DNA of 34,356 nt from an uncultured bacterium (GCA_964400385.1 CAYNUZ010000003.1:1-34356); one strand, 5' to 3'; positions 8,496 to 33,281 are shown, counted from the first letter of the stretch. Program-made: numbers and translations. Notes: generated by a model not told the origin, from the sequence alone.

Positions 8496-8637
8496 TGTGC
8501 CGTCACTCCTGCTCCCGCCTCGATTCTAGCCCACCGGCCCCGTTCGTGCCTCCCCGGGGACCCCCGAGGGGTGCGTCCGCCCGGCCCACGCCCCCCTGCG
8601 CCACCGCAAATCGGGCGGCCAGGGCGGCCCCGGGACG

Positions 8638-13799: not shown

Positions 13800-13829
13800 T
13801 ATAGTAATAGTTAGTCACCCGTGTAGTTA
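13800..13829. promoter_or_regulatory. AT-rich island with tandem (A)TAGT(A/T) repeats; candidate promoter/TetR operator
   Basis: The segment reads tATAGTA ATAGTT AGTC ... gTAGTTA. It contains TATAGT (13800-13805), a 5/6 match to the -10 consensus, 16 nt after TTGCGC (13778-13783), and TAGTTA repeated at 13808-13813 and 13824-13829. It lies in the 107-bp divergent region between the GH4 and TetR genes. Confidence 0.4.
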
Positions 13830-13855
13830 TCCCCGGGTCCGGGGAGGGAGTCGCC

Positions 13856-14506
13856 GTGCCAAGACCGTCGCACAACGCCGATGCCCGCCTGATCCAGGCC
13901 GCGCTCGACCTCATGCCCCGGCAGGGACTGGCCGCGCTCAAGGTCCGGCAGGTCGCCGCCAAGGCGGGGGTCAACCTGGGCATGTTCCACTATCATTTCA
14001 AGTCGAAGCGCGAATTCACCCGCCGGGTCCTCAAGGCGTTTTACGAAAGATTTTTCGAGCGCCTCACCACCGCCATCGCCGCCGCGGAAGGCGCCCCGCC
14101 GCGCGAGCGCCTGCGCAGCGCGATGCTGGCGATCATCCGGTTCGGGCGGGAGCATCGCGGCCACTTCCTCTCGATCCTCCGGGATCTCCTGGACGGCAAC
14201 CAGGAGGCCATGGCCTTCGTCCGGGAGAACTTTCCCCGGCACGTCTCCATCATGTTCCGCCTGCTCCGGGACGCGCAGCGGGCCGGCGTGGTCCGCCGCC
14301 TTCCCCTCCCCGTGCTCCTGCCTGTCCTGGCGGCCCCCCAGCTCGTCCCTGTCCTGGCGGTCGCCGCGGTGGAACGCTTCTTCGCCGGGAAGCTGCTCGG
14401 CTTCCCGGTCGCCGGACTGGCCCGGCTGCTCCTGACCGACCGGATGATCGGCGCCCGCCTGGACCTGTCGCTGGCCGCGGTGTCTCCGGGCGGCCGGCGC
14501 CCATGA
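13856..14506 (+). CDS. TetR/AcrR family transcriptional regulator
   Basis: HTH LKVRQVAAKAGVNLGMFHYHFKSKREF. GTG start with a GGAGGGAG SD 6 nt upstream. Confidence 0.93.
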   Translation: MPRPSHNADARLIQAALDLMPRQGLAALKVRQVAAKAGVNLGMFHYHFKSKREFTRRVLKAFYERFFERLTTAIAAAEGAPPRERLRSAMLAIIRFGREHRGHFLSILRDLLDGNQEAMAFVRENFPRHVSIMFRLLRDAQRAGVVRRLPLPVLLPVLAAPQLVPVLAVAAVERFFAGKLLGFPVAGLARLLLTDRMIGARLDLSLAAVSPGGRRP

Positions 14507-15855: not shown

Positions 15856-15862
15856 GCAACCC

Positions 15863-16597
15863 ATGCCCCCCAAACGCATCCGCATCATCGTCGGCGTGCT
15901 GGTGACCGTGCTGACGGTCCTGGTCATCCGGCGCGTGTTCTTTCTCGACGAGTTCCGGTACGCGGGCACCGTGGAAGCGACCGAAGTGGACGTCCCCGCG
16001 CGCATCGCCTCCGTCATCGCCACGGTGGACGTCAGGGAGGGGCAGGATGTGGCCGCCGCCGCGCCGCTCTTCCACCTCGCGGGCGAGGACATCCGGCTGG
16101 CCGCGGACCTCAACGAACGGAACTACCAGCGGGCGAAGACGCTCTTCGACGGCGGGTCCATGCCGCAGGCCGAGTTCGACCGGCTCCGGTTCCTGCGGGA
16201 GGACAGCGCCCTCAAGGTCCGCTGGCTGACGATCCGCGCCCCGCTCGCCGGCACCGTCCTCAATACCTACTTCGAGGCGGGGGAGATGGTGGGCCCGGGC
16301 GCGCGCGTCGCCACGCTGGCGGACCTCTCGGAGGTCTGGGCCTGGGTCTACGTGCCGCAGCCGGTGCTGGCGTCCCTGAAACTGGGCCAGGCGGTTACGG
16401 GCGCCCTGCCCGAGCTGCGCAAGAAGGTCTTCGCCGGCCGGCTCGCGGAGATCCGCGAGAGGGCCGAGTTCACCCCGAAGAACGTCCAGACCCGGGAGGA
16501 GCGCACCCGGCTGGTGTACGGGGTCAAGGTCGCCTTCCCCAACCCGGACCGCATCCTCAAGCCGGGGATGACGATCGAGGTCGCGCTCGCGCGCTGA
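15863..16597 (+). CDS. HlyD-family membrane fusion protein (YbhG-like, short)
   Basis: N-terminal TM helix, lipoyl-like halves (VDVPARIASVIATVDVREGQDV ... IRAPLAGTVLNTYFEAGEMV) and a C-terminal beta-barrel segment (RLVYGVKVAFPNP...KPGMTIEV). Confidence 0.9.
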   Translation: MPPKRIRIIVGVLVTVLTVLVIRRVFFLDEFRYAGTVEATEVDVPARIASVIATVDVREGQDVAAAAPLFHLAGEDIRLAADLNERNYQRAKTLFDGGSMPQAEFDRLRFLREDSALKVRWLTIRAPLAGTVLNTYFEAGEMVGPGARVATLADLSEVWAWVYVPQPVLASLKLGQAVTGALPELRKKVFAGRLAEIRERAEFTPKNVQTREERTRLVYGVKVAFPNPDRILKPGMTIEVALAR

Positions 16598-16610
16598 AGG
16601 AAGCCGGACG

Positions 16611-17348
16611 ATGGACCCCGACGCCATCGGCATCGCCGTCCGGGACGTCGCCAAGACCCTGCGCACGACCCGGGCGCTGCGCGGCGTCACGGCGGCGTTC
16701 GAGCCCGGCCGGCTGCACGGGCTGATCGGGCCGGACGGCGCGGGCAAGACGACCCTGCTGCGGCTGCTCGTCGGGCTCCTGCGGCCCGACACCGGCACGA
16801 TCGCCTTCCACGCGGGGGGCCGCGACGTCCCCTTCGACAGCGTCCGCCCGGCGATGGCCTACATGCCCCAGCAGCAGAGCCTCTATCCCGATCTCTCGGT
16901 GATCGAGCACCTCGAATTCTTCAAGGAGCTGTACCAGATTCCGGAGGCGGTGTACGCGGAACGGAGCGCCCGGCTGCTGGCCCTGACCCGGCTGGACGGC
17001 TTCCGCGACCGGTCGGCCCGCCAGCTCTCCGGCGGCATGTACAAGAAGCTGGGCCTGATGTGCGCCCTGCTCCAGTCGCCCCGGGTGGTCCTGCTCGACG
17101 AGCCCACGAACGGCGTGGACCCGATCAGCCGGCGCGAGTTCTGGGAGCTGCTGTACGACCTGGTGGCGCAGGGCATCCTGGTGATCGTCACGACGGCGTA
17201 CATGGACGAGGCGGAGCGGTGCGGGCTGGTCCACGTCCTCGACGGCGGCGTGCTCCTGGCCGAGGGTGAGCCGCGCCGGGTCCTGGAGGAGGCGAAGGCG
17301 GCCTCCTTCGACGAGCTGTTCCTGCGCGCCGCGGGCGAGGCCCGGTGA
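16611..17348 (+). CDS. ABC transporter ATP-binding protein (YbhF N-half-like); H-loop His replaced by Ala
   Basis: Walker A GPDGAGKTT, signature LSGGMYKKL, Walker B VVLLDEPT and D-loop NGVD are intact, but the H-loop reads TTAYMDEA (Ala196, GCG 17196-17198). Confidence 0.95.
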   Translation: MDPDAIGIAVRDVAKTLRTTRALRGVTAAFEPGRLHGLIGPDGAGKTTLLRLLVGLLRPDTGTIAFHAGGRDVPFDSVRPAMAYMPQQQSLYPDLSVIEHLEFFKELYQIPEAVYAERSARLLALTRLDGFRDRSARQLSGGMYKKLGLMCALLQSPRVVLLDEPTNGVDPISRREFWELLYDLVAQGILVIVTTAYMDEAERCGLVHVLDGGVLLAEGEPRRVLEEAKAASFDELFLRAAGEAR

Positions 17349-18268
17349 GCGTCCCCGCGGTCGAGACCCGGGACCTGACGATGACGTTCGGCACGTTCAC
17401 GGCCGTGGACCGGGTGACCTTCCAGGTCGAACGGGGGGAGATCTTCGGGTTCCTCGGGGCCAACGGCGCGGGCAAGACCACGACCATCCGGATGCTCTGC
17501 GGCCTGCTCGTGCCCACCTCGGGCACGGCGACAATCGCCGGGCTCGACCTGCACGACGGGCTCGACCCGGTCAAGCGCAAGGTCGGGTACATGTCCCAGC
17601 GGTTCACGCTGTACGGCGACCTCACCGCCGGGGAGAACCTCGCGTTCGCCGCCGCCCTGCGGAAGATGGACGACGCCACCTTCCGGCGGCGCCGCGACGA
17701 GTTGTTTGCGCTGGTCGGGTACGATCACGACCCGCAGACCCTGGTCCGGGACATGCCCCCGGGGGTCCGCCAGCAGCTCTCGCTCGTCGCCGCCACGCTG
17801 CACGACCCGGAGATCATCTTCCTGGACGAACCGACGGCGGGGGTCACGCCCGCCTCCCGGGTGCGGTTCTGGCGGCTGATCCGCAAGCTGGCGGACGCGG
17901 GCAAGACGGTGTTCGTCACCACGCACTACATGGACGAGGCGGAGCAGTGCGGCCGGATCGCCCTGATGCGCGGGGGGCGGATCATCGCGCTGGACGACCC
18001 GGCGGGCTTGAAGCGGCTGGCGTTCCCGCTCCCGCTCGTCGAGGTCACCCCGGCCCCGGACGCCCCGGCCGGCTGGCAGGCGCGGTGGTTCGGCGACCCC
18101 GCGGTCGGCCACCTGACGCCGCACGGCATGCGGTACCACTTCGCCGTGCACGGGGCCGCAGCCTGGGCGGCGCAGGCCCCCGCCCTCCCGCCCTCACTGG
18201 TGGTGCGGGACATCGTGCCGTCGCTGGAGGACGTGTTCATCGAGATGGTGGAGGGCAAGGACCGGTGA
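17345..18268 (+). CDS. ABC transporter ATP-binding protein (YbhF C-half-like); degenerate signature motif
   Basis: Walker A GANGAGKTT, Walker B IIFLDEPT and H-loop TTHYMDEA are intact. The signature position reads MPPGVRQQL (17753-17764) and the D-loop reads AGVT. The GTG start overlaps the upstream stop (GTGA). Confidence 0.95.
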   Translation: MSVPAVETRDLTMTFGTFTAVDRVTFQVERGEIFGFLGANGAGKTTTIRMLCGLLVPTSGTATIAGLDLHDGLDPVKRKVGYMSQRFTLYGDLTAGENLAFAAALRKMDDATFRRRRDELFALVGYDHDPQTLVRDMPPGVRQQLSLVAATLHDPEIIFLDEPTAGVTPASRVRFWRLIRKLADAGKTVFVTTHYMDEAEQCGRIALMRGGRIIALDDPAGLKRLAFPLPLVEVTPAPDAPAGWQARWFGDPAVGHLTPHGMRYHFAVHGAAAWAAQAPALPPSLVVRDIVPSLEDVFIEMVEGKDR

Positions 18269-19383
18269 CAGGGGCGTTCTCGACCCGGCGCACCGTCGCG
18301 ATCGCGCACAAGGAGGTCCGGCACATCCTGCGCGACCCCCTCACCATGGGCTTCGCGCTGGGCCTCCCGCTGGTCCTCGTCGCGTTCTTCGGGTACGCGA
18401 TTGATCTCGACGTCCGGCACATCCCCGTCGCGCACGTGAACCGCGACCGGACCCGGGCCTCGCGGCAGTTCATCGAGGTCTTCGACTCGTCGCAGTTCTT
18501 CCGGATGTCCCCCGCCCCCGCGGGCGACGCCGTGGGCCACCTCGACGCGGAGCGCGCGCGCGCGATCCTGGTGATCGAGCCGGGGTTCGGCAAGCGGCTC
18601 GCCGCGGGCAAGCCCGTCTCGGCGCAGGTGCTGCTGGACGGGGTGGACAGCTCGACCGCGGGATCGGTCCTCGGGTACCTCGGCGGCATCGAGCGCGCCG
18701 CCAATGAGCGGCTCACCGGCCATGCGGTGCCGAAGGCCCCGCTGGCGCTTGAAACGCGGTACGTCTTCAACCCGGAGCTCTCGAGCCGGTGGTTCGTCGT
18801 GCCGGGACTGCTGGTCGTGGTCATGAGCATCATGGCCATCATGCTGACCGCCATGACCGTCGCCAAGGAATGGGAGACCGGGTCCATGGAGCTGCTGCTG
18901 TCCACGCCCGTCCACCCCGCGGAGATCGTCTTCGGCAAGCTCGCCCCGTACCTCGCGCTGTCCTTCATGGCGGTCGCGCTGGTGTACGTGATCGCCCGCG
19001 TCCTGGCGGTGCCCTTCGCGGGCAGCCACCTCCTCCTGATCCTGGCCTGCCTGCTCTTCCTGGTGCCGTGCCTCATGCAGGGGCTGCTCATCTCGGTGGC
19101 GACCCGGCAGCAGCAGCTCGCGATGCAGCTCTCGCTCATGGTGGGGATGCTCCCCTCCTTCATGCTCTCCGGGTTCATCTTCCCCGTCGAGAGCATGCCG
19201 CTGTTCTTCCGCATCGTCACCCGGCTCCTCTCGCCGCGGTGGTTCATGGTGATCGCGCGGGGCATCTTCCTCAAGGACGCGAGCCTCACCGAGCTGGCCG
19301 GGCCGCTGCTGGCGCTGACGGCCATCGGCGCGTTCTTCACGCTGCTGGCGGTCCGGCGGTTCAAGGCGGACCTCGAGACATGA
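18265..19383 (+). CDS. ABC-2 type transporter permease (YbhS-like)
   Basis: N-terminus RRTVAIAHKEVRHILRDPLTM, a large extracytoplasmic loop, then five or more TM helices. The GTG start overlaps the upstream stop. Confidence 0.9.
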   Translation: MTGAFSTRRTVAIAHKEVRHILRDPLTMGFALGLPLVLVAFFGYAIDLDVRHIPVAHVNRDRTRASRQFIEVFDSSQFFRMSPAPAGDAVGHLDAERARAILVIEPGFGKRLAAGKPVSAQVLLDGVDSSTAGSVLGYLGGIERAANERLTGHAVPKAPLALETRYVFNPELSSRWFVVPGLLVVVMSIMAIMLTAMTVAKEWETGSMELLLSTPVHPAEIVFGKLAPYLALSFMAVALVYVIARVLAVPFAGSHLLLILACLLFLVPCLMQGLLISVATRQQQLAMQLSLMVGMLPSFMLSGFIFPVESMPLFFRIVTRLLSPRWFMVIARGIFLKDASLTELAGPLLALTAIGAFFTLLAVRRFKADLET

Positions 19384-20480
19384 ATCCCACCATCCTGGGC
19401 TTCATGCGCAAGGAGCTCGCGCAGGCGCTGCGGGACCCGCGGATGCTCATGCTGATCCTCGTGATGCCGGTCATCCAGCTCACGCTGTTCGGGCTCGCGC
19501 TCAACGCCGAGACGCGCAATATCCGGCTGGCGGTGCTCGCCGCGCCCGACGACCGGATCGCCGCCCGGCTCGCCGACCGCGCCTTCACCTCGGGCTGGTT
19601 CGTGCGCGTGGACGCCGACCCGGCCAATCCCGTCAGCGCGCTCAAGGCGGGCACGGCCGACGCCATCCTGATCGCCCCGCCCGGCGGCGCCACGAAGGCC
19701 TTTGGGCACGGGCAGGCGACCTTCCAGCTCCTGACCGACGCCTCCAACGCGGTGCGCGCCCGCAGCGTCGAGAACTACGTCAACGCGATCCTGGGCCAGG
19801 TCCTCGAGGACCTGCTGCCCGGCGGCACCCCACGGCCGCCGATCCACCTCGACGTCCGGGTGCTCTACAACCCGGCGATGCGCTCGGCGGTCTTCATGAT
19901 CCCCGCCGTGCTGGCCATGATCCTCCTGCTCGTCTCCCAGCAGCTCACGGGCCTCTCCCTCGCCCGCGAAAAGGAGCTCGGTACGATGGAGATGCTCCTC
20001 GCCGCCCCGGTGTCGCGGTGGGAGATCCTCATCGGGAAGACGCTGCCGTACATCCTGCTCGCCCTGCTCGACGTGCCGATCGCCCTCGCCGTGGCCGTGG
20101 GCGGGTTCGGGGTCCCCATGCGCGGGCCGCTCTGGGAGCTGGTGGGGGTGGCCATCCTGTTCGTCTGCTCCACGGCGGCCTTCGGCACCCTGATCTCGAC
20201 CTTCGCCCGCAACCAGCAGCAGGCGATGATGGGCGGCTTCCTCTTCACCTTCCCGGCCAACCTGCTCTCCGGTCTCATGTTTCCGCTCGACACGCTCCCC
20301 TGGCCGGTCCGGTTCGTGAGCTACCTCAACCCCCTGCGGTACTTCATCTCGGTGATGCGCAACATCATGCTCAAGGGCGGCCACTTCGACGCGGTCTGGC
20401 CCAGCGCCCTCGCGCTGGCGGCGCTGGCGGTGGTGGCCGTCACGATTTCCGCCCGCCGCTTCCACGCCACCTTGGACTGA
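19380..20480 (+). CDS. ABC-2 type transporter permease (YbhR-like)
   Basis: MNPTILGFMRKELAQALRDPRMLMLILVMP; paralogous architecture to the preceding gene. The ATG overlaps the upstream stop (ATGA). Confidence 0.9.
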   Translation: MNPTILGFMRKELAQALRDPRMLMLILVMPVIQLTLFGLALNAETRNIRLAVLAAPDDRIAARLADRAFTSGWFVRVDADPANPVSALKAGTADAILIAPPGGATKAFGHGQATFQLLTDASNAVRARSVENYVNAILGQVLEDLLPGGTPRPPIHLDVRVLYNPAMRSAVFMIPAVLAMILLLVSQQLTGLSLAREKELGTMEMLLAAPVSRWEILIGKTLPYILLALLDVPIALAVAVGGFGVPMRGPLWELVGVAILFVCSTAAFGTLISTFARNQQQAMMGGFLFTFPANLLSGLMFPLDTLPWPVRFVSYLNPLRYFISVMRNIMLKGGHFDAVWPSALALAALAVVAVTISARRFHATLD

Positions 20481-23672: not shown

Positions 23673-24997
23673 CCACGGCCATCGACCCGGGCCTCGTCGC
23701 CGAGGTCACGGCGGCGGTGGAGAAGGCCCGGGACGAGATCATCCAGCTCGCCCGGTCGCTCGTCCGCATCCCCTCCGAAAACCTCCCGCCCACCGGCATG
23801 GAGCTGGGGGTCCAGAACCATGTCCAGGCCTTCCTCGAAACGGCCGGGATCCCCGTGGACCGGTTCACCCTCGAGGAGGCGGGCATCGCCTCCCACCCGG
23901 CGTTCATGCCCGGCCGCGAGTACGGCGCCAACCGGCCGGACGTTGTCGGCACCCTGAAGGGCTCCGGGGGCGGCCGGTCGCTGATCTTCTCGGGCCATGC
24001 CGACACCGTCCCCGTGGGCGGCGGCGCGTGGGCGCGGGACCCGTTTTCGGGCGATGTCGAGGACGGGAAGCTCCACGGCCGGGGGGCCTTCGACATGAAG
24101 GCGGGGCTGGCGGCCTCGCTGATGGCGGTCAAGCTGCTCAAGTCCATGCAGGCACCCCTCCGGGGCGATCTTCTCGTGGAGAGCGTCGTGGACGAGGAGT
24201 TCGCGGGCGGCCACGGGACGCTCGCGGCCCGGCTGCGCGGCCACCGCGCCGACGCCGCCGTCGTCGGGGAAAATTCCGGCATGACGATCTACCACGCCCA
24301 CCGGGGCTTCTTCCTCGTCCAGCTCACCGTGGAAGGCGCCGGCGGCATCGACTTCAACGTCGGCGCGGGCGAGCTGGCCAACCCGGTGGACCACGTGGGA
24401 CGGCTGATCGAGTGGATCAACGAGTACCGGCACGTCCGGCGCGAGCGGGCCGCCGTGCCCCCCGCCTACCGGGAGATGGCCGACCCGTCGCCGGTGCTGC
24501 TCACGCAGGTGAGCAGCGGCGACCTCGGGCCGACCCACCCGATCGCCGTCCCATCCCGGTGCACGCTGGAGGTCTATATCCAGACCATGCCCGGGGAGAC
24601 GCGGGAAGCGATCGAGCGGGAGTTCTTCGGCTTCCTGGATGCGCTGTGCCGCAAGGACCCGTACTTCGTGAAGCATCCCCTGGTGCGCCACTTCCCGTAC
24701 CGGTGGATTCCCGGCTCGGCGATCCCCGCCGACCACCCGCTGGTGGCCGCCGCCCGCGGGGCCGCGGGCGCGGTGGTGGGTCGCGACGTTCCGGCGCGGG
24801 CGGCCCCGTACCCGTGCGACCTGTACATCTTCAACGACCTCTTCCGGATCCCGGGCATCCTGCTGGGGCCCCGCGGCGACCACGCCCACGCCCCCGACGA
24901 GTATGTGCTGGTCGAGGACCTCATCGCCGTCACCCGGATTGACATGCTGACCGCGCTCTCGTGGTGCAACACTTCCTTGGTAGGATCGTCTGCATGA
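23669..24997 (+). CDS. M20-family metallohydrolase (ArgE/DapE/acylase-type deacylase)
   Basis: GHADTVP, GRGAFDMKAG and VVDEEFAGGHG motifs. The ATG overlaps the upstream stop (ATGA). Confidence 0.92.
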   Translation: MTTAIDPGLVAEVTAAVEKARDEIIQLARSLVRIPSENLPPTGMELGVQNHVQAFLETAGIPVDRFTLEEAGIASHPAFMPGREYGANRPDVVGTLKGSGGGRSLIFSGHADTVPVGGGAWARDPFSGDVEDGKLHGRGAFDMKAGLAASLMAVKLLKSMQAPLRGDLLVESVVDEEFAGGHGTLAARLRGHRADAAVVGENSGMTIYHAHRGFFLVQLTVEGAGGIDFNVGAGELANPVDHVGRLIEWINEYRHVRRERAAVPPAYREMADPSPVLLTQVSSGDLGPTHPIAVPSRCTLEVYIQTMPGETREAIEREFFGFLDALCRKDPYFVKHPLVRHFPYRWIPGSAIPADHPLVAAARGAAGAVVGRDVPARAAPYPCDLYIFNDLFRIPGILLGPRGDHAHAPDEYVLVEDLIAVTRIDMLTALSWCNTSLVGSSA

Positions 24998-25290
24998 GCA
25001 GGACGAACTGGGAGGCCATCGCGGCGACGCGCGAGTTCAAGCAGCTCGTGGCCGCCAAGGCCCGGTTCATCCTCCCGGCGACGCTCTTCTTCATCGTCTA
25101 TTACTTCGCCCTGCCCGTCCTCGTCGGATACTGGCCGGAGCTGATGAACCGGCCGGTGTGGGGGCCGCTGAATATCGCCTACCTCTTCGCGCTCTCCCAG
25201 TTCGTCATGGCCTGGGTGATCGCGGGCCTGTACATGGTGGCCGCGGCCCGGTTTGACGCCGGCGCCGCGCGCATCGTGAAGAGGGGCTGA
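24994..25290 (+). CDS. DUF485 (YjcH-like) small inner-membrane protein
   Basis: 98 aa, [11 protein letters not shown] followed by two TM helices; the usual partner gene immediately upstream of actP. The ATG overlaps the M20 stop (ATGA). Confidence 0.85.
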
Positions 25291-25294
25291 CGCC

Positions 25295-26854
25295 GTGGCC
25301 CTGGCGATGTTCCTCGGCTTCATCGCGGTGACGCTCGGGATCACGTACTGGGCGTCCCGCCGGTCGGCGGGTTCCTCCCACTTCTTCGCCGCCGGCCGCC
25401 GCATCACGGGGTGGCAGAACGGGATCGCGGTGGCGGGCGACTACATGAGCGCGGCCTCGTTCCTCGGCATCGCGGGCCTGATCGCGTTCAACGGGTACGA
25501 CGGGTTCATGTACTCGGTGGGCTGGCTCGTGGCCTACCTCACGGTCCTGCTGGTCGTGGCCGAGCCGCTGCGCAACGCGGGCAAGTACACGATGGCCGAC
25601 GTGCTGGCGTACCGGCTCAAGCCCCGGCCGGTGCGGGCGATGGCGGCACTGGCCACGCTCACCGTCTGCATCTTCTACATGATTGCCCAGATGGTCGGCG
25701 CGGGGGCGCTGGTCTCCCTGCTGCTCAAGGACGCCGGGATCTCCTTCGAGGCGGCCGTGACCGGCGTCGGCGCGCTCATGATCGTCTACGTCGTCTTCGG
25801 CGGGATGCTGGCCACGACCTGGGTCCAGATCGTCAAGGCCGTCCTGCTCATGGCGGGGACGATCCTGCTCAGCCTGCTGGTCATGGCGCACTTCGACTGG
25901 AGCTTCGCGACGTTCTTCGACGCCGTCACCCACGTGACGTACCACGACCCCAAGGGCGCCGCCGTCACCCAGAACTTCCTGACGCCGGGGCTCAAGTACA
26001 AGCCGCCGTACGGCGCGCTGGACCTCATCTCGCTGGGGATCGCGCTGATCTTCGGCACCGCGGGGCTCCCCCACATCCTCGTCCGGTTCTACACGGTGCC
26101 GGACGCGAAGACGGCCCGGGTCAGCGTGGTCTGGGCGATGGGGATCATCGGGACCTTCTACATCCTGACGACCTTCCTCGGATTCGGGGCCGCCACCATC
26201 GTGGGCCGCGACTTCATCGCGAAGAACGGCGGCACCAACATGAGCGCGCCCCTCCTCGCCCAGGCGCTGGCCGGCGATGCGTTCTTCGCCTTCATCTCCG
26301 CGATCGCGTTCGCCACCATCCTGGCCGTGGTGGCGGGACTGACGATCAGCGCGTCCACCTCCTTCGCCCACGACTTCTGGACCAACGTGGTCCACCACGG
26401 CCGCGAGCGCCGGCACGGCGAGGAGGTCCTCGTCGCGCGGATCACGGCCTTCGCGGTCGGGGCGGCGGCCATCGCCGTCGCGATCCGGCTGGGGCCGACC
26501 GCCAACGTCGCCTTTCTCGTGGCGCTGGCCTTCGCCGTGGCGGCGTCGGCCAACCTCCCGGCGATCGTGCTTTCGCTGTACTGGAAGCGGTTCACCACCA
26601 CGGGCGCGGTCGCCGGCATGGCCACCGGACTGGCCGCGTCCATCGCCCTGATCCTGCTCGGACCGTCGGTCCGCGGCGCCGCCAATGCGGTGTTCCCGCT
26701 CGACAACCCGGGGATCGTCAGTGTGCCCCTCGGGTTCCTGGGGGCGTGGCTGGGGACCCTCCTGGGCCGGGAGCCGGGGGCCGAGGCGAAATTCGCTGAA
26801 TTGAGCGTCCGTTCCACGACCGGCCTCGGATCGGAACAAGCCACGCCGCACTGA
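25295..26854 (+). CDS. actP: cation/acetate symporter ActP (solute:sodium symporter family)
   Basis: Collinear with E. coli ActP as I recall it: [74 protein letters not shown], and C-terminus [13 protein letters not shown]. Confidence 0.9.
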
Positions 26855-26895: not shown

Positions 26896-27615
26896 ATGCC
26901 ACCCATCGTGTCCATCCGCAATGTCTCCAAGGATTACGCCCTCGGCGAAACCGTCGTCCACGCCCTCAAGGGGGTCACCTTCGACATCCAGTCCGGTGAG
27001 TTCCTCTCGATCGCCGGGCCGTCGGGCTCCGGCAAGACCACCCTGTTGAACCTCATCGGGTGTGTGGACCAGCCCACGTCCGGATCCGTGGTCGTCGCCG
27101 GGGAGGACGTGACGCAGCGCACCGAGCAGCAGCTCACCACGCTGCGGCTCACCCGGATCGGGTTCATCTTCCAGAGCTTCAACCTGATCCCGGTCCTGAC
27201 CGTCTTCCAGAACATCGAGCTGCCCCTCCTGCTCCAGCAGAAGCATGCCCCCGCCGAACGGCGCGCGCGTGTCATGGACCTGCTGGTGCAGGTCGGGATC
27301 GGGGAATACGCCGACCACCGGCCCAACGAGCTGTCCGGCGGCCAGCGGCAGCGCGTGGCCATCGCCCGCGCCCTGGTCACCCGGCCGGCGCTGGTGCTCG
27401 CGGACGAGCCCACGGCCAACCTGGATTCCGTGACGGGGCAGACCATCATCGACCTCATGAAGGACCTCAACCGCAAGGAGGGCACGACCTTCATCTTCTC
27501 GACCCACGACCACCGGGTGATGTCCCACGCCGCGGCGATCATCCGGCTGGCGGACGGCCAGTACGTGGACCGCGTGACCCCCGCCGAGGCCGGCATCACC
27601 TCCGCGTCGCACTGA
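26896..27615 (+). CDS. ABC transporter ATP-binding protein, LolD/MacB-NBD type
   Basis: GPSGSGKTT, FIFQSFNL, LSGGQRQRVAIARAL, LVLADEPTANLD, STHD. Confidence 0.95.
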   Translation: MPPIVSIRNVSKDYALGETVVHALKGVTFDIQSGEFLSIAGPSGSGKTTLLNLIGCVDQPTSGSVVVAGEDVTQRTEQQLTTLRLTRIGFIFQSFNLIPVLTVFQNIELPLLLQQKHAPAERRARVMDLLVQVGIGEYADHRPNELSGGQRQRVAIARALVTRPALVLADEPTANLDSVTGQTIIDLMKDLNRKEGTTFIFSTHDHRVMSHAAAIIRLADGQYVDRVTPAEAGITSASH

Positions 27616-27628
27616 ACGGCATCCCGCG

Positions 27629-29773
27629 ATGAAGCTCGACACGCTGGGATTGCTGGCCCGGATGGCCTACCGGAACCTGTTCGCCGCGCGGCTCAAGACT
27701 GCCATCGTCGGGTCCATCGTCTTCTTCGGCGCCCTCATCGTCGTACTGGGCCACTCGCTCCTGGATGCCGTGGACGCCGGGATGAGCCGGTCCATCATCG
27801 GCAGCGTCGCGGGCGACTGCCAGGTCTATTCGTCGAAATCCAAGGAGAAGCTCGAGCTGTGGGGCAGCTTCGGCGGGTTCCCGGACATCGCACCCGTCGA
27901 GGATTATTCCCGCATCAAGAAGACCCTGCTGGGCGTCCCGAACGTCAAGGACGTGGTGCCCATGGGGATCAACGGCGCGCTGGTGACCTCCGGCAACACG
28001 ATTGACCTCGCGCCCGAGAAGCTCCGCAACGCCGTCCGGGCGATGCAGCAGCACCCCGGGCCCGCCGCCCGCGCCGAGTACCAGTCCCGCAAGGCGCACG
28101 TCCGGCGGATCGTGGGGCTGCTCGAGAAGGACCTGGCGAACCTGCAGGAGATCTCCGGCGACGCCGCCGCCACGGCCGAGGCGCGGCGGGACGTGGCGCG
28201 GGCCAACGCGGACGGGTTCTGGGCCGGGTTCGACGCCGATCCCCTGGCCAAGCTGGAGATCCTCGAGAACAAGGTCGCCCCCCAGGCGCCCGACGCGGAC
28301 CTGCTCTGGATCTCGTACATCGGGACGGACCCGCAGCAGTTCACGAAGTCGTTCGACCGGATGGAGATCGTGGAGGGCACCCCGATCCCCCCCGGGAAGC
28401 GCGGGTTCCTCTTCGCCAAGTGGGGGTACGAGGAGAACTGCAAGCTCAAGATCGCCCGCCGGCTGGACAAGATCAAGACGGCGCTGGAGGCGGGAGGCAA
28501 GCGGATCGCCAAGGACGCGGAGCTGCAGCGGTTCGTCAAGGAGAACGTCGCGCAGGTCCACGAGATCCTCTACCAGCTCGACCCGCTCAAGGCGAAGACC
28601 GCCACGGAACGGCTCCAGAAGGCCCTCAAGGACCCCATCGGCGAGCTGGAGCCGATGCTGGCCACGCTGCTGACGGTGGACGACGCGAATTTCCAGGAGC
28701 GCTACGCCATCTTCTACCGGGACGTCGCGCCCCTGATCGAGCTGTACAAGATCCGCGTGGGCGACACGCTCACCATCAAGGCGTTCACCCGGAGCGGGTA
28801 CGTCCAGTCGGTGAACGTGAAGGTCTACGGCACCTTCCAGTTCAAGGGGCTCGAGACCTCGTCCCTGGCAGGGTCCGAAAACCTCATGGACCTGGTCTCC
28901 TTCCGCGAGCTGTACGGGTACCTCACCGCCGACAAGCTGGCCGAGATCGAGGCGATGAAGAAGGCCGCCGGGGCGAAGACGGTCTCGCGCGAGCACGCTG
29001 AGGCCGAACTCTTTGGTCGCGCGGACGCGCCCACGCAGACGACCGGGGGGTCGGGCAAGGCCGTCACGGCGGAAGCCACGCCCGGCATCATCAAGGTGCC
29101 GCCCCGCCTGACCGGCGAGGGCCGCGCCCTGCGGGACGCCGAGATCGCGGCCCGGGTCTACGGCCCCGCCGAGCTGGAGCACGGGGTGGTCCTGAACGCG
29201 GCGGTCCTCCTCAAGGACCCGCGGAAGCTGAAGGTGACGATGCGGGCCATCGCGGCCGCGGCGAAGCAGGACGGGCTGGACCTCAAGGTCGTCTCGTGGC
29301 AGGAGGCCGCCGGGTTCATGGGCCAGCTCGTGATGCTGATGCGGCTGGTCCTCTACGTCGCCGTCTCGTTCATCTTCCTGGTGGCGATCATCGTCCTCAA
29401 CAACTCCATGGTGATGGCGGCGCTGGAGCGGGTCAAGGACATCGGGACGCTGCGGGCGGTGGGGGCCCAGCGCCCGTTCATCTTCGCCATGATCCTGGTC
29501 GAGGCGGCGGTCATCGGCGTGCTGTTCGGCGGCGCCGGGGCGCTCGCGGGCGGGGCCCTCGTGGCGCTGATCGGCCACTGGGGGATCCCGGCGACCTCGG
29601 ACGTCATGTTCTTCTTCTTCTCCGGCCCGCGGCTGCGGCCGGTGCCCCAGCCGGTGGCGGTCGCCATCGCCGCGGTGATGGTCCTGGTGGTCAACGCCGT
29701 CTCGGCCGCCTATCCGGCCTGGATCGCCATGCGGGTGACGCCGCGGCAGGCCATGGCCGCGGGAGACGCCTGA
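27629..29773 (+). CDS. FtsX/MacB-type (type VII) ABC permease with ~517-aa extracytoplasmic domain
   Basis: N-terminal TM helix (AIVGSIVFFGALIVVLG), a long soluble region, then a C-terminal FtsX module (three TM helices; ERVKDIGTLRAVGAQRPFIF). Confidence 0.9.
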   Translation: MKLDTLGLLARMAYRNLFAARLKTAIVGSIVFFGALIVVLGHSLLDAVDAGMSRSIIGSVAGDCQVYSSKSKEKLELWGSFGGFPDIAPVEDYSRIKKTLLGVPNVKDVVPMGINGALVTSGNTIDLAPEKLRNAVRAMQQHPGPAARAEYQSRKAHVRRIVGLLEKDLANLQEISGDAAATAEARRDVARANADGFWAGFDADPLAKLEILENKVAPQAPDADLLWISYIGTDPQQFTKSFDRMEIVEGTPIPPGKRGFLFAKWGYEENCKLKIARRLDKIKTALEAGGKRIAKDAELQRFVKENVAQVHEILYQLDPLKAKTATERLQKALKDPIGELEPMLATLLTVDDANFQERYAIFYRDVAPLIELYKIRVGDTLTIKAFTRSGYVQSVNVKVYGTFQFKGLETSSLAGSENLMDLVSFRELYGYLTADKLAEIEAMKKAAGAKTVSREHAEAELFGRADAPTQTTGGSGKAVTAEATPGIIKVPPRLTGEGRALRDAEIAARVYGPAELEHGVVLNAAVLLKDPRKLKVTMRAIAAAAKQDGLDLKVVSWQEAAGFMGQLVMLMRLVLYVAVSFIFLVAIIVLNNSMVMAALERVKDIGTLRAVGAQRPFIFAMILVEAAVIGVLFGGAGALAGGALVALIGHWGIPATSDVMFFFFSGPRLRPVPQPVAVAIAAVMVLVVNAVSAAYPAWIAMRVTPRQAMAAGDA

Positions 29774-31086
29774 TGCTCGAAACCCTCCGCACCGACCTGT
29801 TGATCGCCGGGCGGAACCTCCTCCAGCACACCCGCCGGAACCTGTTCCTGGGCGGGGCGCTGGCGATGGTGACGCTGCTCTTCTGCCTGCTCAACGGCCT
29901 GTCCACCGGCGTCAAGGAGACGATGGTCCGCACGGCCACCACGCTCGAGACCGGCCACGTGAACGTGGGCGGATTCTTCAAGATCACCTCCGGCCAGTCC
30001 GCGCCCGTGGTCACCCACTACGCGAAGGTGCTGGAGGTCATCCGGAAGAATGTGCCGGAGCTCGACTATGTCAGCGTGCGCGGCCGGGGCTGGGCCAAGG
30101 CGGTCTCCGACACGGCGACCACGATGTCCGGCGTCGGCGGTATCGACATCACCCGCGAGCCGGGCTTCCGGAAGGTCGTGCAGGTGGAGTCCGGCTCCCT
30201 CGACGACCTCGCGCACCCCGGCACCCTGCTCCTCTTCCGGGTGCAGGCGGACAAGCTGGGGGTCAAGGTGGGCGACACCGTGACGCTCTCCGCCCCCACC
30301 AGCCGGGGGGTCAACAACGTGATCGACGTGCGGGTGGCCGCGATCGCGAAGAACGTGGGGCTGCTGGGCCAGTGGAACGTCTTCATCAACGACGCCTCGC
30401 TGCGCCAGCTCTACCAGCTCACCGACGACGCCACCAGCGTGCTGATGCTGCACCTCAAGGACATCCGCTCGATGGGCCCGGTGGCGGAGCGGCTGCGCAC
30501 CGTCCTGGCCAACGCCGGGTACCGGGTCATGGACCAGGATCCGGTCGTCTTCTGGATGAAGTTCGACAAGGTGAACCGGGAGTCGTGGACCGGGCAGAAG
30601 CTCGACATCACCACGTGGAAGGACGAGCTGTCCTTCTTCATGTGGGTCCTGACCGCGCTGGACGCGCTGACCGCGATCCTGATCACGATCCTCCTCATCA
30701 TCGTGGTCGTGGGCATCATGAACACCATGTGGATCGCGATCCGGGAACGGACCCGGGAGATCGGGACCCTGCGGGCGATCGGCATGCCGCGCGCGCAGGT
30801 GCTGCGGCTGTTCATGGCCGAGGCCCTGCTGCTGGGGCTCGCGGGCACCGCCGCCGGAGCCGTCCTGGCCGCGGTCCTCGGGGGCGCGGTGAACCTCGCG
30901 CACATCCCGGTTCCGGACGCCGTGCAGCTCTTCCTGATGTCGAACCACATCTATTTCGCGATCCATGCCGGCGGGCTCCTCCGGGCCGTGCTGGGCATCA
31001 CCTTCGTCACCACCCTGGCCGCGCTCTACCCGTCGCTGCGCGCGGCCCGGCTCCGACCGGTCACGGCGATGCAGCATGCGGGCTGA
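29773..31086 (+). CDS. FtsX/MacB-type ABC permease (LolC/LolE-sized)
   Basis: MLETLRTDLLIAGRNLLQHTRRNLFLGG, TM1, ~240-aa periplasmic domain, FtsX module (ERTREIGTLRAIGMPRAQV). TGATG start/stop overlap with the previous gene. Confidence 0.9.
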   Translation: MLETLRTDLLIAGRNLLQHTRRNLFLGGALAMVTLLFCLLNGLSTGVKETMVRTATTLETGHVNVGGFFKITSGQSAPVVTHYAKVLEVIRKNVPELDYVSVRGRGWAKAVSDTATTMSGVGGIDITREPGFRKVVQVESGSLDDLAHPGTLLLFRVQADKLGVKVGDTVTLSAPTSRGVNNVIDVRVAAIAKNVGLLGQWNVFINDASLRQLYQLTDDATSVLMLHLKDIRSMGPVAERLRTVLANAGYRVMDQDPVVFWMKFDKVNRESWTGQKLDITTWKDELSFFMWVLTALDALTAILITILLIIVVVGIMNTMWIAIRERTREIGTLRAIGMPRAQVLRLFMAEALLLGLAGTAAGAVLAAVLGGAVNLAHIPVPDAVQLFLMSNHIYFAIHAGGLLRAVLGITFVTTLAALYPSLRAARLRPVTAMQHAG

Positions 31087-31096
31087 GGGAGGCACC

Positions 31097-31876
31097 ATGA
31101 CCACCGTGCGGATCGCGATCGGGTGTGCGGGCTGGCTGGCGGCGGCCGCCGCGGGGGCCGCGCCCATGCCCCGAGACGAAATGGTGGGGCTCCTCAAGAC
31201 CATCGACGTCCGGCAGCGCAACTCCGGCGACTGGAAGTCCGTGGTGTACATGGAATCCAGGGAGCGGGACAAGACGGACACCGTCTACGAGATGCTGGTC
31301 TTCCGCCGCGACGCGGACCAGAAGCTGATGTTCCTGTTCTCGAAGCCCAAGGCCGAGGCCGGCAAGGGCTACCTGCGGCTCGAGAAGAACCTGTGGATGT
31401 ACGATCCCAAGGTCGGGAAGTGGGAGCGGCGGACGGAGCGGGAGCGCATCGGCGGGACGGACTCGCGGCGGGAGGACTTCGACCAGTCCAACCTCGCCGG
31501 CGAATACGATCCTTCCGACGGGGGGGAGGAGAAGCTCGGGGCCTTCACGGTGCGCCACCTCAAGCTCGCCGCGAAGCCGAACGTGGACGTGGCGTTTCCG
31601 CTCACGCAGCTCTGGATCGACACCGCGAGCGGCAATATCCTCAAGCGCCAGGACTTCGCCCTGTCGGGCCGGCTGATGCGGACCGACTATTACCCGAAGT
31701 GGAAGAAGGTCTTCAGCGAGTCCAAGGGCAGCGACATCTGGTATCCGCAGGAGATGTGGTTCTACGACGAGGTGGACAAGGCCAACTCGACCCACATCCT
31801 GATCCAGCAGATCGACCTGCACGCGCTCGAGGCCAACCTCTTCACCAAGGCCTGGCTGGAGAGCAAGAGCCGGTGA
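31097..31876 (+). CDS. secreted LolA-like protein (outer membrane lipoprotein-sorting protein family)
   Basis: Signal peptide, 259 aa. Family assignment is from memory of LolA_like/DUF1329-type proteins encoded next to FtsX or RND exporters (YLRLEKNLWMYDPKVGKW, TQLWIDTASGNILKRQDF). GAGGGAGG SD upstream. Confidence 0.75.
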   Translation: MTTVRIAIGCAGWLAAAAAGAAPMPRDEMVGLLKTIDVRQRNSGDWKSVVYMESRERDKTDTVYEMLVFRRDADQKLMFLFSKPKAEAGKGYLRLEKNLWMYDPKVGKWERRTERERIGGTDSRREDFDQSNLAGEYDPSDGGEEKLGAFTVRHLKLAAKPNVDVAFPLTQLWIDTASGNILKRQDFALSGRLMRTDYYPKWKKVFSESKGSDIWYPQEMWFYDEVDKANSTHILIQQIDLHALEANLFTKAWLESKSR

Positions 31877-33237
31877 TGTGGGCGGCGCTGGTCTTTGCGG
31901 CGGCGACCGCCGCCGCGGAGGCCCGCCAGGACGAGGGCGCGATGTTCGGGGCGACGGAGTCCTCCACCACCGGCGCCGCCGCGGTCGCGCCGGAGCCGGC
32001 GCCCCCTTCCCGGCCGGCCGACGCCGCCCCCGAGAATCCCCTGGCGATCGGCGGCCAGTTCTACCTGCGCGAAGCGGTCACGGCGAGCCGGCACCTCGGG
32101 GCGGCGGCGTGGGCCAACACCGCCCCGCTCCTCGCCGACGGCTGGTTCGACGCCCGGCCCAACCCGCGCGTCCGGACCATGCTCCTCGCCCGGATGTCCT
32201 TCGATCCGACGGTCCCGCCCTCGACCACCACGTTCCTGGGGCCGACCCCGTCCGGGGGACCCTCCGTCGCGCTGGACCAGGCGTGGGTCAACTTCGACGT
32301 CGGCCATGTCGCCTTCGTGACCGCCGGCCGGCAGCACGTCAAATGGGGCGTGTCCCGGTTCTGGAACCCCAACGACCTGCTGCATGCCACCCGCCGCGAT
32401 GCGCTCGCCCAGTTCGACGCACGCACCGGCGAGACCCTCCTCAAGGTCCACGTGCCGTGGGAGCGGGAGGGCTGGAACTTCTACGCCATCCAGCTCCTGG
32501 AAAGCCTGGACCACGCCGCCCAGGTGGGCCGGATCGGCGGGGCGGCCCGGGCGGAGGTGGTGGCGGGGCCGGGCGAGCTGGGACTCGATACCCTGGTGCA
32601 GCGCGGCTTCCGGCCGCGCGCGGGCGCCGACCTGTCCGCCGGCGTGGGCCCGGTGGATGTCTACGCCGAGGGGGTGCTCCAGCAGGGCACCGACCGGCCG
32701 TTGTGGCGCCGCGCAGCCGTCCAGCCCCCGTTCGGGACCGCGCTGGAAACCTATACGCCGGACAAGCTGGTCGGTTCCGTCTCCGGCGGCCTCACCTGGG
32801 CGTTCAACATCACGGATCGCGACGCGATGACGCTGGGGGCCGAGTACTTCTACAATCCCGCCGGGTACACCGACAAGGCCATCTATCCGTGGCTCGTCTT
32901 CCAGGGCTCCTTCGCCCCGTTCTACGTCGCCCGCGACTACGCCGCGGCGTACGTCTTCTTCACGGTGCCCGGCACCAACGGCAACCAGACGCTCACGCTC
33001 TCCAACCTCGCCAACGTCTCGGACCGGACGGCGGTCGGCCGGGTGGACTGGACGATCCTGGCGCTCACCCACCTGCGTATCGAGGCCTTCGCGGCGGGCC
33101 GCTACGGCGCCCCCGGCGGCGAATTCCGGTTCGCCCTGGACCTGGCCCCGCAGGTGATCAACGGGATTCCCATTCCCGCGCTGCACGTCCCCCCGCCGCT
33201 GGCCGAGGCGGGCGCGGCCCTCCGCGTCAGCTTCTGA
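31876..33237 (+). CDS. putative outer-membrane beta-barrel protein (family unassigned)
   Basis: Signal peptide MWAALVFAAATAAAEA, alternating-hydrophobicity segments, and a C-terminal ...ALRVSF ending in Phe. The ATG overlaps the upstream TGA. Confidence 0.7.
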   Translation: MWAALVFAAATAAAEARQDEGAMFGATESSTTGAAAVAPEPAPPSRPADAAPENPLAIGGQFYLREAVTASRHLGAAAWANTAPLLADGWFDARPNPRVRTMLLARMSFDPTVPPSTTTFLGPTPSGGPSVALDQAWVNFDVGHVAFVTAGRQHVKWGVSRFWNPNDLLHATRRDALAQFDARTGETLLKVHVPWEREGWNFYAIQLLESLDHAAQVGRIGGAARAEVVAGPGELGLDTLVQRGFRPRAGADLSAGVGPVDVYAEGVLQQGTDRPLWRRAAVQPPFGTALETYTPDKLVGSVSGGLTWAFNITDRDAMTLGAEYFYNPAGYTDKAIYPWLVFQGSFAPFYVARDYAAAYVFFTVPGTNGNQTLTLSNLANVSDRTAVGRVDWTILALTHLRIEAFAAGRYGAPGGEFRFALDLAPQVINGIPIPALHVPPPLAEAGAALRVSF

Positions 33238-33263: not shown

Positions 33264-33281
33264 CCGCCCCCGCGGGGGCGG
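33264..33281 (+). terminator. 18-nt perfect GC palindrome (hairpin) after the beta-barrel gene, no U tract
   Basis: CCGCCCCCG|CGGGGGCGG, starting 27 nt after the stop at 33237. Confidence 0.35.

Follow-up and report, generated by a model that had tools for sequence, protein, structure and literature searches.

What would an operon do that combines a Lol/MacB-like ABC ATPase, two FtsX-type permeases, a LolA-like protein and an outer-membrane barrel, and that holds no membrane fusion protein? The question is raised by a locus in a 34,356-nt stretch of DNA from an uncultured bacterium, analysed here as a whole and called the window, in which gene calling placed five co-oriented genes, g1 to g5, on the plus strand at 26896–33237 (Table 1). 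Gaps of 13 nt and 10 nt separate g1 from g2 and g3 from g4, respectively, and both the g2/g3 and the g4/g5 junctions consist of a TGATG sequence with a 1-nt overlap. A first-pass annotation, made from the sequence alone, had described this five-gene layout and all four junctions, and the computed coordinates matched it exactly. The operon-like packing, with overlapping stop and start codons, is repeated in related loci, where the overlap between g4 and g5 in particular recurs. Directly upstream of g1 lies an ActP symporter gene, and the spacer is only 41 nt, so that transcription could read through into the module; no regulator gene was found upstream of the module in the window itself.

Table 1. 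Genes of the module and copies of the motif shared by g2 and g5, with positions counted from the first nucleotide of the window
Feature	Coordinates	Strand	Length or location	Description
g1	26896..27615	+	239 aa	ABC ATPase, MacB/LolD/DevA type
g2	27629..29773	+	714 aa	Large type VII (FtsX) permease
g3	29773..31086	+	437 aa	LolC/E-sized type VII permease, MacB-type periplasmic core domain
g4	31097..31876	+	259 aa	Soluble LolA-superfamily protein, predicted periplasmic carrier
g5	31876..33237	+	453 aa	Predicted outer-membrane beta-barrel, ~18 strands, C-terminal end ...LRVSF
Motif copy in g2	28988..29017	+	g2 aa 454–463	REHAEAELFG, within disordered periplasmic loop aa 422–516
Motif copy in g5	31924..31950	+	g5 aa 17–25	RQDEGAMFG, N-terminal extension

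Type VII ABC systems are recognised by permeases of four TM helices that carry an FtsX domain and a large periplasmic domain between TM1 and TM2, together with a cognate MacB/LolD-type nucleotide-binding domain (NBD) with intact catalytic motifs, and g1 to g3 show all of these features. In Pfam, g1 matched ABC_tran at 2e-35; among NCBIfam models it scored highest with DevA (231 bits), LolD (224.5 bits) and the MacB NBD (208 bits), without reaching any of their equivalog cut-offs, and its translation retains Walker A (GPSGSGKT), the signature LSGGQ, Walker B (LVLADEPT) and the H-loop. Both permeases matched FtsX (PF02687), g2 at 3.5e-14 over aa 577–705 and g3 at 5.4e-21, and g3 additionally matched MacB_PCD at 4.4e-7. 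The LolD-type NBD and the two different type VII permeases of the first-pass annotation were thereby confirmed. In the AlphaFold2 model of g2, which is only moderately confident (pLDDT 64), TM1 is followed by a periplasmic domain and then by three C-terminal TM helices; this domain spans ~520 aa, contains helical insertions and is about double the size of its LolC/E counterpart. A Foldseek search with this model placed LolE and LolC on top (target TM-score 0.6–0.71), followed by MacB, with FtsEX and BceAB among the weaker matches, and the sequence of g3 matched YtrF, LolF, MacB, LolC and LolE in the PDB; the solved proteins closest to the two permeases by fold and sequence include LolE, LolC and LolF. 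Fusion of the permease genes was seen in some genomes, and in one locus (L004) g2 and g3 form a single ORF of 1147 aa with two FtsX stretches, which supports a g2/g3 heterodimer. As in LolD2CE, the module has one ATPase gene per two permeases.

The product of g4 matched the LolA_like/TP_0789-like family PF17131 at 2e-32, and a g4 profile aligned with the LolA-superfamily protein 3BUU at 1.1e-13 over nearly its full length (aa 34–259) and weakly with 4Z48 (E 0.013), in agreement with the LolA-fold periplasmic protein proposed at the outset. PF17131 was the only Pfam match of g4 at E up to 0.01, and the LolA family proper, PF03548, was not matched. The N-terminus is a type I signal peptide, and the g4 alignment holds no conserved lipobox Cys, the N-terminal Cys being variable, as expected of a soluble shuttle. 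A WERRTERE segment within the well-conserved GKWERRTERERIGG block is fully invariant in this alignment, and so is FTKAW within the near-invariant end FTKAWLESKSR. The median identity of g4 (66%) is unusually high, near that of the ATPase g1 (70%, 62 loci), and such sequence conservation suggests that g4 may have several binding partners. Some sources annotate g4 homologues as "outer membrane lipoprotein-sorting protein".

With LolE, LolC and LolF as the closest solved relatives of the permeases and a carrier from the LolA superfamily, the module could serve as an alternative, LolB-independent lipoprotein route, in which a subset of lipoproteins would be extracted by g2 and g3 and ferried by g4, and g5 would serve as outer-membrane acceptor or surface translocon. 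The high conservation of g4 suits housekeeping and would fit, for example, a Myxococcota-specific route for lipids or lipoproteins. LolB cannot be identified outside beta- and gamma-Proteobacteria, so that Myxococcota need another insertion mechanism (PMC11784454), and a similar idea has been put forward for the BBJ23-BBJ29 cluster of Borrelia (PMC13078400). Nevertheless, we consider the lipoprotein route unlikely. The canonical Lol system was rejected as the identity of the module: with the NCBIfam lolCE model, g2 scored 52.9 bits and g3 81.4 bits against an equivalog cut-off of 362 bits (TIGR02212), the LolD score of g1 stayed far below 307.75 bits (TIGR02211), and the carrier belongs to PF17131, not PF03548. 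The earlier statement that the locus mirrors LolD/LolC/LolE/LolA therefore holds for architecture but not for orthology, the proteins being related to LolCDE and LolA only distantly. The module is also unlike lolF-lolD plus lolA, the usual arrangement outside gamma-Proteobacteria (PMC11784454), and contains neither lipoprotein genes nor lipoprotein-specific features.

For g5, neither Pfam nor the PDB yielded a sequence match. Its AlphaFold2 model (pLDDT 74, pTM 0.72) is all-beta, with ~18 strands and three short helices (H20-23, H76-80 and H334-342), and the N-terminus comprises a short signal peptide and a disordered, Ala/Pro/Glu-rich extension (aa 1–55). The best 50 Foldseek matches in the PDB were all outer-membrane barrels or designs built on them, and AlgE, OccK, MOMP and OmpF were matched at E 1e-8 to 1e-10, with modest TM-scores of 0.4–0.5 (query TM-score up to 0.51). 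Thus, the two assignments on which the first-pass reading depended both held, the carrier through its homology to 3BUU and the integral beta-barrel through the predicted fold. DUF1302-type models, to which that annotation had also pointed, gave a sub-threshold hint only: DUF1302 (PF06980) was matched below threshold by 4 of 26 members of the g5 family (best E 0.004), by none of 10 further members scanned singly and not by the g5 of the window. The family comprises 1416 clusters at 50% identity and is present in 353 species genomes. As a TolC-type outer-membrane factor, g5 was rejected, as it has no match to OEP (PF02321) and its model lacks a long periplasmic helical barrel.

The absence of a membrane fusion protein, claimed at first sight of the locus, was borne out as well. 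A Pfam search found no HlyD-family match in g1 to g5 and no TolC-like or OEP gene inside the module, and the flanking regions of four related loci (L001, L002, L004 and L005) are likewise free of HlyD-type genes. The sole HlyD gene of the window, at 15815–16597, is part of a separate TetR-OEP-HlyD-ABC2 system at 13.8–20.5 kb, and the presence of this classical system in the same window indicates that the organism uses adaptors elsewhere.

We compared 63 loci, one per species-representative genome and only those with enough flank, and in 62 of them all five genes are present in identical order. The hosts are nearly all Myxococcota and belong to several genera, and the genes flanking the module differ between loci, so that colinearity on this scale indicates an association beyond chance. 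It might still be argued that g5 is a general porin that merely adjoins an ABC/LolA-like operon and that no single system exists, since g5 structurally matches generic porins at TM-scores of 0.4–0.5 and one locus (L036) has an orphan g5 paralogue with the other four genes absent. We find a coincidental link scarcely credible; it conflicts with the conserved gene order across genera between unrelated flanks, with the overlap of the g4 stop and the g5 start here and in relatives, and with a conserved motif that g5 shares with g2, and given the synteny it is already close to refuted. We treat the five genes as a single unit because of the phylum-wide synteny and the permease gene fusions, and gene order and fusion support the view that they would act as one functional unit. 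Upstream of the module, 23 loci have a MarR regulator and at least 2 a PadR regulator; their occurrence in many lineages hints at inducible export and argues against the lipoprotein route, for which constitutive use would be expected. No conserved biosynthetic or cargo-related neighbour genes were found in the flanks of related loci.

The motif common to g2 and g5, E-x-x-Φ-F-G, lies in both proteins in a disordered segment, a periplasmic loop in g2 and the N-terminal extension in g5. The g2 copy is located in a loop with pLDDT < 50 in the AlphaFold2 model; R454, E458, E460, F462 and G463 are invariant in the g2 alignment, and the motif stands at the matching relative position in 59 of 64 g2 orthologues. 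In g5, F24 and G25 are invariant in the alignment, and most representatives of the family (214/266) carry one to three copies, with one carrying six. The density of the motif is 1.27 per 100 aa, whereas 924 flanking ORFs give 0.0077 per 100 aa. Probably, the motif on the g2 loop and the g5 extension marks donor and acceptor stations. However, in one MAG locus (L054) g4 is missing although g2 and g5 both retain the motif, which implies that the carrier may not be obligatory or that the motif may not be a carrier docking site. A motif common to pump and barrel could be a regulatory tether in a mechanotransducer that, like FtsEX-EnvC or BceAB, uses ATP to switch g4 or the barrel, for pore gating or envelope-stress signalling, and moves no cargo. 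The presence of FtsEX and BceAB among the weaker structural matches of g2 would agree with such a switch, and the large helical insertions of the g2 periplasmic domain could be its lever, but both permeases match LolC/E/F and MacB best, not FtsX or BceB, g4 has the fold of a LolA-superfamily carrier and not of an enzyme activator, and no conserved sensor kinase or hydrolase lies beside the module in the flanks of related loci. The chance that the module is a cargo-free switch is, in our estimate, slim at best.

Known type VII ABC systems (MacB, LolCDE, FtsEX and HrtBA) are extractors, exporters or mechanotransducers, and to our knowledge no type VII (FtsX/MacB) system works as an importer. This argues against import, in which g5 would admit a hydrophobic nutrient such as a fatty ester, an alkane or a sterol-like compound, g4 would carry it and the ABC transporter would insert it into, or move it across, the inner membrane. 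In principle, transport in either direction is conceivable for a barrel paired with a LolA-like protein, growth of Pseudomonas on fatty esters and on Tween 20 depends on DUF1302/DUF1329 pairs (bioRxiv 2020.07.04.188060), and the Marinobacter pair AupA/AupB, an outer- and an inner-membrane protein, has been implicated in alkane uptake, in a paper that does not contain the terms DUF1302 or DUF1329 (PMC5989066). The flanks of related loci hold no conserved catabolic genes next to the module, and we regard import as very improbable.

The first-pass interpretation as a whole is thus partly supported, and the function it proposed, extraction, shuttling and insertion or export, is consistent with all the evidence. 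We give a little better than an even chance to the reading that the module is an adaptor-less, envelope-spanning exporter, in which a hydrophobic cargo would pass from an ABC extractor through a LolA-like carrier to a barrel, and whose physical interactions, direction of transport and cargo we infer. Two copies of the g1 ATPase would power a heterodimer of the unlike permeases g2 and g3, and, as in LolCDE and MacB, ATP binding and hydrolysis would drive their periplasmic domains by mechanical transmission. These domains would pull a hydrophobic or amphiphilic cargo out of the inner membrane, from its outer leaflet, or out of the periplasm; g4 would receive it, shield it during the crossing of the periplasm and hand it to the g5 barrel for insertion into, or release through, the outer membrane. 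E-x-x-Φ-F-G may be a docking peptide for g4 that pump and barrel have in common, or it may tether the two directly to each other. The cargo is most likely a small hydrophobic molecule or lipid (an endogenous lipid, a secondary metabolite or a hydrophobic toxin) and not bulk lipoproteins, because the module is distinct from canonical Lol and has MarR/PadR regulators upstream in many lineages. More tentatively, and with considerable doubt, the module might be a hitherto unrecognised, phylum-wide pathway of Myxococcota by which a lipid, or a molecule anchored by one, reaches the outer membrane from the inner one, with a heterodimeric extractor, a dedicated LolA-like shuttle, an integral barrel acceptor and a docking peptide common to extractor and acceptor. 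If true, this would be a new answer to what replaces LolB or a membrane fusion protein, and a new principle of station recognition during periplasmic shuttling. It would bear on the passage of hydrophobic molecules through the periplasm and into the outer membrane in bacteria beyond E. coli, and on lipid export in Myxococcota. The module is compact, complete from inner to outer membrane, with energiser, carrier and outer-membrane terminus within a single operon; the motif common to pump and barrel offers a specific, falsifiable handle on station recognition, and orthologues occur in genera with cultured, tractable members (Myxococcus and Anaeromyxobacter), which opens the hand-over to direct testing.

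No publication on the five-gene module was found in the searchable literature, so that the description of such clusters as uncharacterised is right for this family, but analogous designs exist in Borrelia BBJ23-BBJ29 and AmeABCD. Like Lol (LolCDE/LolDF-LolA), the module combines a single LolD-like ATPase gene with two FtsX-type permeases that differ from each other and carry periplasmic domains; it also has a soluble periplasmic LolA-superfamily carrier and no membrane fusion protein. It differs in that all five genes stand in one operon, in the enlarged periplasmic domain of g2 and in its outer-membrane end, an integral barrel instead of the lipoprotein LolB. With MacAB-TolC and DevBCA-HgdD it shares the ATPase and FtsX/MacB_PCD permease families, DevA being the best match of g1 and MacB being among those of g2 and g3, as well as, in our proposal, export tied to a dedicated outer-membrane protein. 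Unlike these systems, it lacks both an HlyD/MacA/DevB adaptor and a TolC-type OEP channel, its permease is presumably a heterodimer rather than a homodimer, and where they have a continuous duct it has a LolA-like carrier and a porin-like barrel.

The Borrelia cluster, an in-silico proposal of 2026, combines a MacB-like ABC transporter, a LolA-like protein and an Omp85 barrel (PMC13078400). Its barrel is BamA/TamA-like, whereas g5 resembles AlgE, porins and OccK; its permease is homodimeric, whereas two different permease genes are present here; and it has two chaperone-like proteins and a protein of unknown function in addition, is plasmid-borne and is restricted to Borrelia. A Borrelia-like identity was therefore rejected, as only the LolA-like component of the three is shared. 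AmeABCD of Castellaniella defragrans, in which an HAE3-RND pump, a DUF1329 protein of the LolA superfamily and a DUF1302 barrel confer monoterpene tolerance and dye export (PMC6394551), may be considered a functional analogue of the five-gene module. AmeABCD and the Pseudomonas DUF1302/DUF1329/BNR/RND clusters have been implicated in handling very hydrophobic compounds (PMC6394551; bioRxiv 2020.07.04.188060), and they likewise join an energised inner-membrane transporter to a LolA-superfamily protein in the periplasm and to a dedicated barrel of non-TolC type. Possible further points of contact are the weak g4 match 4Z48, a LolA-superfamily structure cited for the Pseudomonas clusters (bioRxiv 2020.07.04.188060), and the few sub-threshold DUF1302 matches among g5 relatives. 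Their energiser, however, is an HAE3 RND pump driven by the proton-motive force and not an ABC transporter, they have an extra BNR/Ycf48-like protein, and their DUF1329 carrier and DUF1302 barrel families are not significantly matched by the module. In Porphyromonas gingivalis, the expression table of one study lists an operon of TetR, MMPL, an "outer membrane lipoprotein-sorting protein" and a hypothetical protein as strongly induced under hemin limitation (PMC10470040). As listed there, a repressor-controlled inner-membrane pump again adjoins such a sorting protein and an uncharacterised protein, the pump being MMPL/RND and not ABC, which suggests by analogy that LolA_like proteins may pair with different pumps. 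The module supports an emerging view in which a LolA-like protein and its dedicated barrel form a portable unit for delivery to the outer membrane, one that can be attached to ABC or RND/MMPL pumps.

Five ORFs at 26896-33237, all in one orientation and with coding-type GC3 in a window of about 70% G+C, form the module. It had been described in the first-pass annotation as five packed genes with four defined junctions, which exactly matched the ORF coordinates: from g1 to g5, a 13-nt gap, a TGATG overlap, a 10-nt gap holding a GGAGG ribosome-binding site, and another TGATG overlap. The RVSF ending reported there for g5 was also read from the translation (...LRVSF). The accompanying structural reading, an ABC ATPase (g1), a large and a smaller FtsX permease (g2 and g3), a LolA-superfamily carrier (g4) and a barrel (g5), was supported by Pfam, a PDB profile match and AlphaFold2/Foldseek. 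An unrelated symporter gene pair lies 41 nt upstream on the same strand, and transcription may run from it into g1-g5. Downstream of g5 come a G+C-rich hairpin and then an unrelated ORF without a Pfam match. The stability of this hairpin was not above that of shuffled sequence (z-score 0.5), and promoter and terminator scans gave nothing informative for the module, so the operon boundaries rest on spacing and synteny only.

Coordinates of the module, its sequence motif and other features in the window and in related loci (L numbers, loci from other genomes collected by the g5 family)
Feature	Position	Strand	Description
g1	26896-27615	+	239 aa
g2	27629-29773	+	714 aa
g3	29773-31086	+	437 aa
g4	31097-31876	+	259 aa
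g5	31876-33237	+	453 aa
g2 motif copy	28988-29017	+	aa 454-463
g5 motif copy	31924-31950	+	aa 17-25
Hairpin	~33264-33281		3' of g5
Symporter pair	24943-26854	+	DUF485 and sodium:solute symporter (ActP-like)
Efflux operon	13811-20480	+	TetR, OEP (TolC-like), HlyD, two ABC ATPases, two ABC-2 permeases (YbhGFSR-like)
Very long ORF	4674-8525	-	1283 aa; single DUF11 match, C-terminal
MarR-family gene, examples	L002:4474-4998, L008:2320-2880	as module	21 further loci
PadR-family gene	L052:2181-2825	as module
Fused g2-g3	L004:4550-7993		1147-aa ORF
Orphan g5 paralogue	L036:2753-4438
g5 directly after g3	L054:6446-9344

On the cytoplasmic and inner-membrane side, g1 matched ABC_tran in Pfam (2e-35) and its catalytic motifs are intact in the translation, while its best NCBIfam matches (DevA, LolD, DarD, FtsE and the MacB NBD) were all under the equivalog cut-offs. 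Pfam placed an FtsX domain in both g2 and g3 and a MacB_PCD domain in g3 as well, and their solved sequence relatives are LolF, LolE, LolC, YtrF and MacB. Against the NCBIfam lolCE model, g2 and g3 scored 53 and 81 bits versus a cut-off of 362. Judged by sequence, g2 and g3 are type VII ABC permeases and not Lol orthologues. In the AlphaFold2 model of g2 (pLDDT 64), a periplasmic region of ~520 aa separates TM1 from three C-terminal TM helices; this region has long helical insertions at aa 120-220 and 264-370, modelled fairly confidently, and a disordered loop at aa 422-516. By fold, the model was closest to LolE and LolC (target TM-score 0.6-0.71), with MacB next.

The g4 protein matched PF17131 (2e-32), a family named LolA_like in the Pfam copy used and TP_0789-like in newer releases. 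Its profile aligned nearly end to end with PDB 3BUU ('LolA superfamily protein NE2245', 1e-13) and weakly with PDB 4Z48. Its homologues have standard type I signal peptides and lack a conserved cysteine, so g4 is a soluble periplasmic protein; a lipoprotein assignment was rejected, as the homologues do not conserve Cys10 of the window protein. In the g4 alignment, the fully invariant segments are WERRTERE, within a well-conserved GKWERRTERERIGG block, and FTKAW, within a near-invariant C-terminal FTKAWLESKSR.

The g5 protein had no match in Pfam or NCBIfam, and a profile search of PDB sequences with the g5-family alignment found nothing. Since the Pfam hints of the family to DUF1302 and Porin_O_P all stayed below threshold, we did not assign g5 to DUF1302 or the alginate-export family. 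AlphaFold2, run on a 26-sequence alignment, returned an all-beta model of ~18 strands (pLDDT 74, pTM 0.72) preceded by a 55-residue disordered N-terminus. The best 50 Foldseek matches listed were all outer-membrane barrels or designs based on them, including MOMP, OmpU/F, OccK/OpdK and chitoporin, and AlgE had the top query TM-score among the matches listed (0.50-0.51). As modelled, g5 represents a new barrel family.

The family is of modest size, comprising 1416 clusters at 50% identity (E up to 1e-3), and 353 species-representative genomes carry it. Myxococcota account for nearly all of the best 80 of these 353 (Anaeromyxobacter, Archangium, Myxococcus, Corallococcus, Pyxidicoccus, Hyalangium, Vitiosangium and many MAGs), and the family also occurs on Polyangia-type contigs. 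Among loci with enough upstream sequence, g1-g4 precede g5 in the same order in 62 of 63, and a merely coincidental linkage of the five genes is extremely improbable. Flanking genes vary by lineage, and clustering of all flanking ORFs from 85 loci revealed nothing conserved outside the five genes except lineage-specific MarR or PadR genes and unrelated genes, and hence no cargo clue. Median identities to the window proteins were 70% (g1), 49% (g2), 56% (g3), 66% (g4) and 44% (g5); phylum-wide, the g4 value is unusually high for a small periplasmic carrier and near that of the ATPase. In one locus (L004), g2 and g3 are fused into a single ORF with two FtsX domains, which argues for a g2/g3 heterodimer. 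One Anaeromyxobacteraceae MAG, JBGQLS01, holds both an orphan g5 paralogue without the other four genes (L036) and a locus with no LolA-like gene (L054).

Several further loci deserve mention. ORFs of a length similar to the L004 fusion are found in L071 and L079, where a fusion is probable. The closest relatives of the window module, L006 and L007 (identities 72-88% and 60-74%), were found in MAGs that carry the labels 'Candidatus Coatesbacteria' and plain 'bacterium', neither a named Myxococcota; this may mean that the source organism represents a poorly sampled lineage or that the bins are mislabelled. L059 is labelled 'Comamonas sp.', yet its gene order, spacing and identity levels are like those of Myxococcus and Pyxidicoccus loci.

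A short motif links the large permease to the barrel. The middle of the disordered periplasmic loop of g2 contains an invariant island, R-E-x-A-E-A-E-L-F-G, whose core E-x-x-Φ-F-G, often with R-P before it, recurs in the N-terminal extension of g5, an Ala/Pro/Glu-rich stretch with a median length of ~77 residues. The longer form common to both is [RK]-x(2-4)-[DE]-x-x-Φ-F-G. The core was present in 214 of 266 g5-family representatives, usually in one to three copies and once in six. The motif was enriched ~160-fold relative to flanking ORFs, and g3 is nearly free of it. We infer that the motif is a station marker, serving either as a shared docking peptide for the carrier or to tether the barrel to the pump. 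Both barrels of JBGQLS01 keep it, and its retention in L054, which lacks g4, slightly favours the tether, unless g4 is encoded elsewhere in that genome.

Regulators and neighbours bear on the module's role. In 23 Archangiaceae/Myxococcaceae loci, the gene immediately upstream, co-oriented with the module, encodes a MarR-family regulator. A PadR gene is placed likewise in at least two loci, and the fused-permease locus L004 has a PadR regulator gene upstream. In the window, neither a MarR nor a PadR gene is directly upstream of g1. A classical tripartite-type efflux operon elsewhere in the window shows that the organism uses membrane-fusion protein (MFP) and outer-membrane factor (OMF) adaptors in other systems. 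Its HlyD gene at 15.8 kb was rejected as an adaptor for g1-g5, being a member of its own TetR-OEP-HlyD-ABC2 operon. Also in the window, G+C around the 1283-aa ORF is 0.62-0.68 versus ~0.72 nearby, no tandem DNA repeats were found in this stretch, and the ORF possibly encodes a large surface or adhesin-like protein.

Known type VII ABC systems such as MacB and LolCDE pass ATP-driven motion to periplasmic domains, and substrates are extracted or expelled; proteins with the LolA fold keep acyl chains or other hydrophobic groups shielded. On these grounds, we infer export of a hydrophobic cargo in four steps as the most economical reading. The cargo would be extracted by a g1(2)-g2-g3 complex, taken up by g4, carried on it across the periplasm, and accepted by g5 for insertion or release, with neither MFP nor TolC on the route. 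The motion passed to periplasmic domains could instead make the module a mechanotransducer, which we consider very improbable, and a role in uptake is quite improbable, known type VII ABC systems being, to our knowledge, not importers. Within the export reading, a lipid or small hydrophobic molecule is the favoured cargo, because the module is distinct from canonical Lol and is linked to MarR/PadR control. That g4 is so highly conserved would still fit a housekeeping role in lipid or lipoprotein handling; a lipoprotein route as such appears unlikely.

A literature search found no publication on the myxobacterial five-gene module. Its architecture mirrors Lol, but equivalog scores, the LolA family and LolB do not place it there; with neither MFP nor OMF, it is not of the MacAB-TolC type either. 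The nearest functional analogues are AmeABCD (PMC6394551) and the Pseudomonas DUF1302/DUF1329 clusters (bioRxiv 2020.07.04.188060), which likewise combine a LolA-superfamily protein with a dedicated barrel, but there the pump is RND. The same job has been proposed in silico for Borrelia BBJ23-29, with an Omp85 barrel (PMC13078400), and, judged from an expression table, a P. gingivalis operon of TetR, MMPL, LolA-like and hypothetical proteins (PMC10470040) points the same way. New in the present module are a type VII ABC pump and LolA-type shuttle ending in a new barrel family, the enlarged permease and the shared motif.
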